Below are positions 43,798 through 48,414 of a DNA stretch of 64,000 nt, one piece after another (the stretch's first letter is position 1; every line of letters begins with the position of its first letter). Source of the stretch: Octopus vulgaris (Eukaryota); NCBI GenBank assembly GCA_951406725.2, contig OX597833.1:21266001-21330000 (forward strand). Direction: 5' to 3'. The translations under genes and the position numbers were made by a program. The notes under the pieces are model-generated. The model saw nothing but the letters and a program-made list of their open reading frames with translations, did not search any database and was not told where the DNA came from.

Positions 43798-43847
43798 AAG
43801 GGTGTTGAAAATACAGGAGGATCAGTTAATTACGATTTTATTGAACA

Positions 43848-44115
43848 CTAGCAGTATCGCCCGGCGTTGCTCGGGTTTCTTTCGACCCTTTAGAATTGGA
43901 ATTTTTGAAAAGTAAAAATTTCGCAGTATGTAGCTTGTTATTCTCTTTAAGTGAAATACACCGAAAAATGGCGACACAGCAGTCAAAACATCGTAAAAAA
44001 TAGGGATTTTCATAGAAAAAAGGCACCTTTTTGATGTAAATAATTTTTGGTGTTAACATGGTCCGATTTGAATTTTTTCTTCTACGGAAGGAAGAGCCTT
44101 CTCCTATCATACTCT
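43848..44115 (-). mobile_element. 3' part of the Helitron-like family seen at 9088-9479
   Basis: A-CTAG-CAGTATCGCCCGGCGTTGCTCGGG is the reverse complement of hairpin+CTAG|T; continuous homology to ~9195-9479. Confidence 0.8.
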
Positions 44116-44124
44116 CATATATAT

Positions 44125-47100
44125 AATTCTCCCTGGGCAAATAAATTATCTTTATTGCTGAAAAGAAAGAAACTGCAGTCTGAGAATTACCGGTTTAGTA
44201 AATGTTTTTATCTTCATTTCACTTAATTTATCAAGCTTCTGTATTCCTAGCACATATTTCGCCTTAATGTACTGATATATGAAAAATATATGGCTTGTGT
44301 TAGTAATACCAGCGATTATAATTATTTTTATTTTATCGCAATTTGATTTGTTTACTTATTTCTCGATAAATTATGAGCGCCAGGCGATATACCAGAATTC
44401 CCTAGTGTTGTCGGGACGTTCGGAGTCTGCGCAGTGATATGATTAGTTAGGGAGAGTAATTCATTAGACGCACATGCTTCGAGTGAGTTAGGATCCCAGA
44501 AAAACAGGGTCTCACTGAAGAATTCTCCCTGGGCAAATAAATTATCTTTATTGCTGAAAAGAAAGAAACTGCAGTCTGAGAATTACCGGTTTAGTAAATG
44601 TTTTTATCTTCATTTCACTTAATTTATCAAGCTTCTGTATTCCTAGCACATATTTCGCCTTAATGTACTGATATATGAAAAATATATGGCTTGTGTTAGT
44701 AATACCAGCGATTATAATTATTTTTATTTTATCGCAATTTGATTTGTTTACTTATTTCTCGATAAATTATGAGCGCCAGGCGATATACCAGAATTCCCTA
44801 GTGTTGTCGGGACGTTCGGAGTCTGCGCAGTGATATGATTAGTTAGGGAGAGTAATTCATTAGACGCACATGCTTCTAGTGAGTTAGGATCCCAGAAAAA
44901 CAGGGTCTCACTGAAGAATTCTCCCTGGGCAAATAAATTATCTTTATTGCTGAAAAGAAAGAAACTGCAGTCTGAGAATTACCGGTTTAGTAAATGTTTT
45001 TATCTTCATTTCACTTAATTTATCAAGCTTCTGTATTCCTAGCACATATTTCGCCTTAATGTACTGATATATGAAAAATATATGGCTTGTGTTAGTAATA
45101 CCAGCGATTATAATTATTTTTATTTTATCGCAATTTGATTTGTTTACTTATTTCTCGATAAATTATGAGCGCCAGGCGATATACCAGAATTCCCTAGTGT
45201 TGTCGGGACGTTCGGAGTCTGCGCAGTGATATGATTAGTTAGGGAGAGTAATTCATTAGACGCACATGCTTCTAGTGAGTTAGGATCCCAGAAAAACAGG
45301 GTCTCACTGAAGAATTCTCCCTGGGCAAATAAATTATCTTTATTGCTGAAAAGAAAGAAACTGCAGTCTGAGAATTACCGGTTTAGTAAATGTTTTTATC
45401 TTCATTTCACTTAATTTATCAAGCTTCTGTATTCCTAGCACATATTTCGCCTTAATGTACTGATATATGAAAAATATATGGCTTGTGTTAGTAATACCAG
45501 CGATTATAATTATTTTTATTTTATCGCAATTTGATTTGTTTACTTATTTCTCGATAAATTATGAGCGCCAGGCGATATACCAGAATTCCCTAGTGTTGTC
45601 GGGACGTTCGGAGTCTGCGCAGTGATATGATTAGTTAGGGAGAGTAATTCATTAGACGCACATGCTTCTAGTGAGTTAGGATCCCAGAAAAACAGGGTCT
45701 CACTGAAGAATTCTCCCTGGGCAAATAAATTATCTTTATTGCTGAAAAGAAAGAAACTGCAGTCTGAGAATTACCGGTTTAGTAAATGTTTTTATCTTCA
45801 TTTCACTTAATTTATCAAGCTTCTGTATTCCTAGCACATATTTCGCCTTAATGTACTGATATATGAAAAATATATGGCTTGTGTTAGTAATACCAGCGAT
45901 TATAATTATTTTTATTTTATCGCAATTTGATTTGTTTACTTATTTCTCGATAAATTATGAGCGCCAGGCGATATACCAGAATTCCCTAGTGTTGTCGGGA
46001 CGTTCGGAGTCTGCGCAGTGATATGATTAGTTAGGGAGAGTAATTCATTAGACGCACATGCTTCTAGTGAGTTAGGATCCCAGAAAAACAGGGTCTCACT
46101 GAAGAATTCTCCTGGGCAAATAAATTATCTTTATTGCTGAAAAGAAAGAAACTGCAGTCTGAGAATTACCGGTTTAGTAAATGTTTTTATCTTCATTTCA
46201 CTTAATTTATCAAGCTTCTGTATTCCTAGCACATATTTCGCCTTAATGTACTGATATATGAAAAATATATGGCTTGTGTTAGTAATACCAGCGATTATAA
46301 TTATTTTTATTTTATCGCAATTTGATTTGTTTACTTATTTCTCGATAAATTATGAGCGCCAGGCGATATACCAGAATTCCTAGTGTTGTCGGGACGTTCG
46401 GAGTCTGCGCAGTGATATGATTAGTTAGGGAGAGTAATTCATTAGACGCACATGCTTCGAGTGAGTTAGGATCCCAGAAAAACAGGGTCTCACTGAAGAA
46501 TTCTCCCTGGGCAAATAAATTATCTTTATTGCTGAAAAGAAAGAAACTGCAGTCTGAGAATTACCGGTTTAGTAAATGTTTTTATCTTCATTTCACTTAA
46601 TTTATCAAGCTTCTGTATTCCTAGCACATATTTCGCCTTAATGTACTGATATATGAAAAATATATGGCTTGTGTTAGTAATACCAGCGATTATAATTATT
46701 TTTATTTTATCGCAATTTGATTTGTTTAATTATTTCTCGATAAATTATGAGCGCCAGGCGATATACCAGAATTCCCTAGTGTTGTCGGGACGTTCGGAGT
46801 CTGCGCAGTGATATGATTAGTTAGGGAGAGTAATTCATTAGACGCACATGCTTCTAGTGAGTTAGGATCCCAGAAAAACAGGGTCTCACTGAAGAATTCT
46901 CCCTGGGCAAATAAATTATCTTTATTGCTGAAAAGAAAGAAACTGCAGTCTGAGAATTACCGGTTTAGTAAATGTTTTTATCTTCATTTCACTTAATTTA
47001 TCAAGCTTCTGTATTCCTAGCACATATTTCGCCTTAATGTACTGATATATGAAAAATATATGGCTTGTGTTAGTAATACCAGCGATTATAATTATTTTTA

Positions 47101-47911
47101 TTTTATCGCAATTTGATTTGTTTACTTATTTCTCGATAAATTATGAGCGCCAGGCGATATACCAGAATTCCCTAGTGTTGTCGGGACGTTCGGAGTCTGC
47201 GCAGTGATATGATTAGTTAGGGAGAGTAATTCATTAGACGCACATGCTTCTAGTGAGTTAGGATCCCAGAAAAACAGGGTCTCACTGAAGAATTCTCCCT
47301 GGGCAAATAAATTATCTTTATTGCTGAAAAGAAAGAAACTGCAGTCTGAGAATTACCGGTTTAGTAAATGTTTTTATCTTCATTTCACTTAATTTATCAA
47401 GCTTCTGTATTCCTAGCACATATTTCGCCTTAATGTACTGATATATGAAAAATATATGGCTTGTGTTAGTAATACCAGCGATTATAATTATTTTTATTTT
47501 ATCGCAATTTGATTTGTTTACTTATTTCTCGATAAATTATGAGCGCCAGGCGATATACCAGAATTCCCTAGTGTTGTCGGGACGTTCGGAGTCTGCGCAG
47601 TGATATGATTAGTTAGGGAGAGTAATTCATTAGACGCACATGCTTCTAGTGAGTTAGGATCCCAGAAAAACAGGGTCTCACTGAAGAATTCTCCCTGGGC
47701 AAATAAATTATCTTTATTGCTGAAAAGAAAGAAACTGCAGTCTGAGAATTACCGGTTTAGTAAATGTTTTTATCTTCATTTCACTTAATTTATCAAGCTT
47801 CTGTATTCCTAGCACATATTTCGCCTTAATGTACTGATATATGAAAAATATATGGCTTGTGTTAGTAATACCAGCGATTATAATTATTTTTATTTTATCG
47901 CAATTTGATTT

Positions 47912-47916
<5 letters not shown>
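44125..47916 (+). repeat. 396-bp tandem array (~9.6 near-identical units), each with a hammerhead ribozyme; non-LTR retrozyme-like element
   Basis: Unit starts (AATTCTCC..) at 44125, 44521, 44917, 45313, 45709, 46105, 46499, 46895, 47291, 47687; very few differences between units; flanked by TA repeats. Confidence 0.9.
44510..44581 (+). ncRNA. Type I hammerhead ribozyme, first of 9 complete copies in the array
   Basis: TCTCA-CTGAAGA-A-TTCT...AGAA-A-GAAA-CTGCAGT-C-TGAGA: canonical core, 5-bp helix I, helix II with apical GCAAATAAA/TTTATTGC hairpin, palindromic ACTGCAGT helix III, GUC site at 44576. Confidence 0.85.
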
Positions 47917-47960
<44 letters not shown>

Positions 47961-47966
47961 TATATG

Positions 47967-48034
<68 letters not shown>

Positions 48035-48414
48035 GAATTTTACGCCTGCGCATTTTGAATTTGTTGACACTGTTTAGTTGGAGTGGTTCATTTGAAGCGA
48101 CAAGTTCGCTGATAGGTAAAGTTCCTTCTTTTTAGTGTTTCCAAATCCAAATTAAGAAATTTTGAGCTGACGAAAGAAATGCTGATTTTATTTGGCTAAT
48201 CTTGAAACGTTGACGTACTCAAACGATCTATGTACTTGTGATATTTTTCTGTATTTACCCCCAAACCTTCGTGAGCTGTCTGGAGTAAACATTATCTGAG
48301 AGAAATTTTCTTTAAGTAGTAGAAATGCTAAGAAAAATTTTTTTTGGCTGCTATTTCTACTAAGTTCAGTATGTGGCAAAGTAATTTATTTTACTAAGCC
48401 CTAATTATATAATA

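Follow-up and report, generated by a model that had tools for sequence, protein, structure and literature searches.

A tandem array in the Octopus vulgaris genome is probably one insertion of a non-autonomous, hammerhead-bearing Penelope-like element

The array and its flanks

The window analyzed here, a stretch of 64,000 nucleotides of Octopus vulgaris DNA (contig OX597833.1, positions 21,266,001 to 21,330,000, forward strand), contains a tandem array with a period of 396, 9.6 copies, and 99% matches (Table 1), which bears out an earlier sequence-only reading of about 9.6 near-identical 396-bp units. From one predicted cut to the next, the nine units are identical except at 4 columns, two of which are single-base deletions within C runs; the other two are substitutions, one common to units 1 and 6 and one confined to a single unit. 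Diversity within the array is 0.15%, and the nearest other array is 0.9% away. No open reading frame of 120 or more residues is present in the array, and the 396-nt monomer is not notably self-paired (z = -1.38; 9 of 100 shuffled sequences fold equally well). The array starts inside a ribozyme and ends in mid-unit, as had been read from the sequence. TA repeats had been described on both flanks; this holds for the 3' side, with its long TA-type tract, but on the 5' side there is only a very short run (Table 1). The high-copy repeat on that side is cut short at the junction, and may be Helitron-like by resemblance. The sequence TCTCA, located in the 5' flank seven bases ahead of the array start (44112-44125), nearly rebuilds helix I with TATATAT at the place of the core, and is possibly microhomology at the 5' junction.

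Table 1. Features of the array and its surroundings (positions within the window)
Feature	Position	Strand	Remarks
High-copy repeat	43847..44117	.	cut short at the 5' junction of the array
TA run, 7 bases	44118..44124	.	5' junction
Insertion	44125..47916	+	begins, 5'-truncated, in helix II (unit position 341); 9 complete units follow, then the 174 nt up to the fixed 3' end
First complete type I hammerhead motif	44510..44581	+	one per unit; 9 copies in all
Helix I	44510-44514 with 44577-44581	+	first complete motif
Core CUGAAGA	44515-44521	+	first complete motif
Helix II	44522-44564	+	first complete motif; A-A mismatch, 4 pairs, inner hairpin
GAAA	44565-44568	+	first complete motif
Helix III	44568-44575	+	first complete motif; 2 pairs and UGCA loop
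Predicted cut	after 44576	+	first complete motif
Cut-to-cut monomer	44577..44972	+	396 nt; predicted linear or circular RNA
Terminal 174 nt	47743..47916	+	last predicted cut to fixed 3' end; putative start of reverse transcription
(TA)n-type microsatellite	47917..48031	.	3' junction; putative target; about 115 bases
Second, unrelated young family, 5'-truncated copy	48032..48400	+	far side of the array's TA tract; ends on the next (TA)n run at 48406
Hammerhead motif of the second family	48161-48223	+	predicted cut after 48217

The hammerhead motif

Complete hammerhead motifs start at 44510, 44906, 45302, 45698, 46094, 46488, 46884, 47280, and 47676, and the cuts that had been predicted after 44576, 44972, 45368, 45764, 46159, 46554, 46950, 47346, and 47742 coincide exactly with the last base of each GTC. 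A tenth GTC triplet, at 44180, lacks the 5' half of its core. The claim of an intact core is correct, with C3, U4, G5, A6, N7, G8, A9, G12, A13, A14, the A15.1-U16.1 pair, and H17 present in 9 of 9 complete copies in the window. The motif had also been described as a minimal hammerhead acting as a dimer; neither "minimal" nor "obligate dimer" is established for it, however, because its helix III belongs to the type, having one or two pairs and a palindromic loop, that is classed as canonical in PMC4209133. An Rfam search, proposed as a check, returned no hammerhead family among its 13 matches at E values up to 5. Moreover, the G10.1-C11.1 pair closing helix II is absent in the subfamily of the array, being replaced by A-A. 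This feature had been called atypical, which is correct in that the typical pair is missing, although such mismatches recur in other families of this genome and have a published precedent. Thus, the axolotl motif HHR_Amex2 resembles the one found here in combining a 2-pair helix III with a mismatch (U-U) at the base of helix II, and is 22% cut in an hour as a monomer and cleaves better as a dimer (PMC7229834), so that the G10.1-C11.1 pair is typical rather than obligatory. Arguing against activity, the lowest-energy fold of the motif (-11.9 kcal/mol) pairs the core CUG with helix III, whereas the constrained hammerhead fold has an energy of -5.8 kcal/mol.

The motif is not a chance occurrence, because a 17-mer spanning helix III and helix I gives 406 matches in the genome (2.8 Gb in 227 contigs) compared to 0 for a reversed control, and because the helices covary. 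Covariation was evaluated for 27 natural relatives that were chosen for having a core. Pairing is preserved in 93.9% of the cells of their alignment. Both partners have changed in 6 of the 11 pairs, located in helices I and II, and covariation scores 0.446, compared to 0.023-0.118 for slid controls; relatedness is not taken into account by the shuffle control. Helix III never varies among the 27 sequences, and is therefore uninformative for compensatory change. Core columns are invariant in this alignment except for U4 (C in 3 of 27), N7 (all four bases), and H17 (C or A). Similarly, about 75 unit positions differ among the four subfamilies of natural copies, with only 1 of 14 core positions affected (U4C). 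The base of helix II is A-A in the array's subfamily, A-C in the middle one, and G-C in the most distant one, in which compensatory changes are seen in the pairs above the canonical G-C. Homologous units lacking preferential conservation of the core had been named as evidence that would speak against a ribozyme; in the 27 relatives, the core is kept while the helices vary. Judged from these sequences, the array carries a real type I hammerhead motif for which cleavage is predicted.

A dispersed family

The family comprises at least 202 dispersed loci with unrelated surroundings. A similarity search, in which the best 39 of 571 candidates were scored, gave 39 loci, the array in the window included. 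Natural copies have units of 396-399 bp, and their four subfamilies are up to about 18% apart. The assignment to the non-LTR retrozyme type made in the sequence-only reading is supported by the non-coding 396-bp unit, the nine consecutive type I hammerhead motifs, and the dispersed copies. A looser pattern identified a sister family (L259-L308) with a 427-bp unit that is 59-70% identical over most of the unit. Helix III and the main 3' end are those of the main family, but the cleavage triplet is GUA and a second end is present at an internal TA-like stretch. Among the 50 fetched loci, none is a coding parent of this sister family. No RNA dataset was listed as containing the unit of the main family; runs presumed to be RNA yielded contigs with lengths of 426 and 428 bases (unit plus 30), although tandem DNA too yields unit-length cyclic contigs. 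The 428-base contig is labelled as another species and carries a motif differing only at N7, the helix II loop, and the inner hairpin; the family therefore occurs beyond the genome analyzed here.

Insertion ends

In 38 of the 39 similarity-ranked loci, the 3' end is located 169-179 nt past the predicted cut, directly on (TA)n, one of these 38 having been scored at 191 by running into the TA tract. The same site is used in 17 of 18 loci chosen solely for their match to the ribozyme pattern, from 100 listed matches, and an exact pattern joining the 3' end to TATA has 202 matches in the genome compared to 0 for its control. The 3'-end point in most copies is TTTA-CATAT, a short match to the target; the array in the window alone has T for A at unit position 176. 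No target duplication is discernible in the TA flanks. Circular permutation of the array ends had been expected in the sequence-only reading, but random permutation is rejected by these data: the 3' end keeps its position on (TA)n, and variation is confined to the 5' end. Taken together, a fixed 3' end on (TA)n and a variable 5' end are the signature of Penelope-type internal initiation.

The distribution of 5' ends was obtained from the first 90 of the 202 end-pattern loci in genome order, a pattern-based sample, similarity sampling being dominated by one long array. Early stops are frequent, with 38 of the 90 insertions being shorter than 100 nt; these were left out of the test, and one of the 52 longer insertions ran off the fetched stretch, leaving 51 ends. 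Fifteen of these ends lie at -5 to +20 of the predicted cut when 4.4 are expected from exposure (p = 2e-5), and the hazard ratio in this interval is 4.4-6.0 across four choices of its limits. The interval was suggested by our first sample, 10 of whose loci recur among the 51 ends; when the loci of the first sample are removed, 13 of 41 ends still lie within it (p = 6e-5). The largest counts in the 15 other 25-nt intervals are 5 (2.1 and 5.0 expected). The cut interval is not TA-rich, and the strongest hairpin in the unit (positions 261-320; -23.7 kcal/mol) shows no excess of ends (3 compared to 3.0 expected). Three 5' ends are at +1 (or +2, because a T may belong to the flank), and many lie 6-19 nt short of the cut. 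TA repeats are present within 12 bases 5' of the element in 80 of the 90 loci. In addition, 40 of the 90 extend past the cut, with a clean junction at 57 of 58 passages over it. A model of attenuation, in which read-through depends on subfamily, was dropped given that the numbers (stops in 10 of 40 and 5 of 33 encounters) are too small.

Origin and turnover of the arrays

Eight of 13 multi-unit loci have a variant that is common to all of their own units and absent from every other sampled locus. Such array-wide private variants are expected from repeated copying of one monomer, although an unsampled donor array or later homogenization could have the same effect. Turnover is recorded in an array with 28 cores (G000:C5:112643700-112654700), which has the 3' end of the family and a mosaic of shared variants; this array is a retro-insertion evolving as a satellite, and long arrays therefore turn over after insertion. 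Unit homogeneity in the window had been taken as a sign of a recent event, which fits the distance to the nearest array, but satellite-type turnover contributes too, as seen in the 28-core mosaic and in the variant common to units 1 and 6. Likewise, the clean junctions and the private variants carried by whole arrays fit the proposed copying around a 396-nt circle, but randomly permuted ends are not seen.

Neptune-type Penelope-like elements

A search for GIY-YIG domains (PF01541), in which 150 of 6136 candidates were scored, identified open frames of 781 residues in 16 of the 150 listed matches. Two translated ORFs contain a reverse transcriptase, a C-terminal GIY-YIG domain, and a CxxxxCxxC linker, the latter being a mark of the Neptune and Nematis clades that has been linked to microsatellite bias (PMC8557442). 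Three Neptune-type families end on (TA)n. One Neptune-type family has a hammerhead with U-U at the base of helix II and U4C, located about 140 nt before its end, and an abundant one (L310-L338; 3399 candidates) has, about 100 nt upstream of its TA end, a variant motif in which U replaces A6 and the palindromic helix III is very short. A scan found no hammerhead in the family with 781-residue frames. The layout of the non-coding family, in which a hammerhead-like motif is followed by a (TA)n end, recurs in these two coding Neptune-type families.

Comparison of the unit with 50 loci, mainly around GIY-YIG matches, gave no meaningful DNA similarity apart from two loci that hold copies of the family, and the same was true for 29 further copies of another Neptune-type family. 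Homology of the unit to a pLTR was therefore absent among the loci compared, which represent few of the Penelope-like families in this genome. At locus L289 (G000:C1:64180000-64188000), a Neptune ORF runs into the sister family, but we rejected this locus as the parent pLTR: it is a nested insertion, because 29 other copies continue differently and the 3' region of the element resumes after the insert. Part of the target is lost at this sister-family copy, and the join lies at a short microhomology. We also make no claim for a U-rich motif shared before the 3' ends of several families, the pattern having 243 matches and its control 27; the first 100 of the 243 are nearly all from two known families, with a few unrelated sequences.

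Other hammerhead-bearing elements

The second family next to the array (Table 1) ends at a fixed point on (TA)n and is often found in inverted copies; its copies are 98-100% identical in the 40 of 1965 candidates that were scored. One copy of it (L341; G000:C23:40454704-40458078, minus strand) begins at its own predicted cut beside a TA run, a single case in agreement with the pile-up of the main family. More than 10 other hammerhead-like motifs, some of them mismatched at the helix II base, are present in the flanks of loci L020, L046, L050, L072, L106, L125, L130, L141, L143, L145, L245, and L253. By these motif matches, the genome appears to be rich in hammerhead-like families.

Discussion

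The array is probably one insertion of a dispersed, non-coding non-LTR retrozyme of 396-399 bp, likely a non-autonomous Penelope-like element whose predicted cut and circular RNAs would be copied by a Neptune-type enzyme. In the mechanism that we propose, tandem copies would be transcribed and the hammerhead would cut after GUC to give 396-nt monomers, some of which may be ligated into circles. A Neptune-type protein with reverse transcriptase and GIY-YIG domains, acting in trans, would nick a (TA)n tract and prime cDNA synthesis internally, 174 nt downstream of the cut and at UUUA-CAUAU in most copies. Stops at the cut would then represent run-off from a cut 5' end, and clean crossings would mean that an uncut multimer or a circle had served as the template, from which head-to-tail arrays like the one in the window would result. 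Long arrays would subsequently turn over like satellite DNA, as is seen for the 28-core array and is presumed for the array studied here. Several observations count against this explanation, namely the missing Rfam match, the competing fold, the lost G10.1-C11.1 pair, the U4C variant of a related subfamily, the weak self-pairing, and the lack of a homologous Penelope-like element among the loci compared.

Internal initiation has a biochemical counterpart in a Penelope-type protein, which makes a nick in AT-rich DNA and begins cDNA synthesis at internal sites downstream of the hammerhead, with genomic ends matching these sites (PMC11167929). The Penelope/Poseidon element PAc of the green anole, from that work, resembles the octopus family in this internal start and in its AT-rich target, but the family here has no ORF and uses a single main 3' end, where PAc has two sites separated by 30-40 nt. 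Its genomic 5' ends, unlike the PAc RNA reads, mark the cut. A more specific proposal is that the insertion ends are a genomic record of germline hammerhead cutting, and that a Neptune enzyme copies both the cut monomer and the religated circle from one internal start at (TA)n; we consider the chances of this being right to be evenly balanced.

It is possible, though in our view rather doubtful, that the same element and enzyme operate with no circle, so that arrays arise from uncut multimeric transcripts of donor arrays or from template jumps between linear monomers, followed by unequal crossing-over. The mosaic variants of the 28-core array indicate that arrays do change after insertion, and a weak helix II base would favor uncut transcripts. 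On the other hand, 57 of 58 crossings are scar-free, whereas template jumps are expected to leave scars, and private variants fill all units in 8 of 13 arrays while occurring in no other sampled locus. Published work bears on both sides, since unprocessed RNA is the main substrate in vitro (PMC11167929) but related elements form circles in mussel, coral, and axolotl (PMC7229834). An unlikely reading is that the hammerhead is kept as a folded signal and rarely cuts, the pile-up of 5' ends reflecting polymerase stalling or a transcription start. The loss of G10.1-C11.1, the U4C variant, the competing fold, the many ends 6-19 nt short of the cut, and the low in vitro activity of similar motifs (PMC4209133) would fit this reading. 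Catalytic positions are nevertheless kept while helices and N7 vary, three ends lie at +1 or +2, and the much stronger hairpin at unit positions 261-320 is without an excess of ends. The pile-up is of interest, and both of these accounts retain some weight, because in PMC11167929 insertion in vitro did not require ribozyme cleavage and reads ending at the cut were absent. Finally, accounts in which the hammerhead-like motif arose by chance and the array is just an ordinary satellite, a tandem repeat carried by a Helitron, or an artefact of assembly are very improbable. A high-copy repeat does adjoin the 5' side, long arrays show satellite-like turnover, and the array length is known from the assembly alone; all three are opposed by the dispersal of the family, of which at least 202 loci share one fixed end and TA flanks in unrelated surroundings, and by the compensatory changes and the 17-mer counts (406 compared to 0).

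The preferred reading, a retrozyme copied by a Neptune-type enzyme, places the family in a class that is already known, a mollusc included; the family is notable for an unusually clear genomic footprint of its mechanism. Like the metazoan non-LTR retrozymes of coral, mussel, and axolotl described in PMC7229834, the family consists of non-coding tandem units (150-450 bp in those elements, with 350-390 bp in mussel compared to 396 bp here) of low GC content with one type I hammerhead each. It differs from them in that its ends are mapped (a fixed internal 3' end, a (TA)n target, and a 5' pile-up at the cut) and in that its monomer is not strongly self-paired. A link between retrozymes and Penelope-like elements was proposed in PMC7229834, and it is argued in bioRxiv 10.64898/2026.07.22.740005 that retrozymes are pLTR-derived, non-autonomous Penelope-like elements. 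The retrozymes of that preprint, similarly to the octopus family, co-occur with Penelope-like elements and are found as fragments, monomers, and multimers. Its case is built on co-occurrence in vertebrates and similarity to pLTRs, whereas ours is built on insertion anatomy, with no homologous pLTR among the loci compared; 8 of 9 predicted retrozyme dimers in the preprint did not cleave in vitro. Non-autonomous elements of the Chlamys clade such as MRC1 (PMC8557442) are also non-coding, arranged head-to-tail, and from a clade with microsatellite targets. The Chlamys clade mostly lacks hammerheads and favors (CA)n and (C)n, however, and non-autonomous elements within it have 3' sequence in common with their partners, for which we see no equivalent among the loci compared. 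Insertion of the octopus family on a microsatellite is in line with the bias of the Neptune clade, which has been attributed to the linker (PMC8557442). In the literature on octopus and cephalopod hammerhead retrozymes, of which our coverage is thin for subscription journals and Repbase, we found neither such a family nor end-mapping of this kind, and the main text of an octopus repeat annotation (PMC13282606) is without ribozymes or retrozymes; nothing further came from PMC10886601 or PMC12602865.

How retrozymes enter new sites, and what the hammerhead does in Penelope-like elements, are posed as questions in PMC7229834, PMC8557442, and bioRxiv 10.64898/2026.07.22.740005. Three sharp predictions follow from the octopus family: reverse transcription should start 174 nt past the cut, the target should be (TA)n, and two forms of template should exist. 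With a 396-nt RNA and an intact candidate enzyme from the same genome, these are testable in the published in vitro system. If the insertion ends do record germline cutting, the circle model of retrozymes would be tied to Penelope internal initiation in a genome with many ribozyme-bearing, TA-targeting families, and a hammerhead without the G10.1-C11.1 pair would still cut in vivo. A further suggestion from the family is that a single retro-insertion is the starting point of some long "satellite" arrays.
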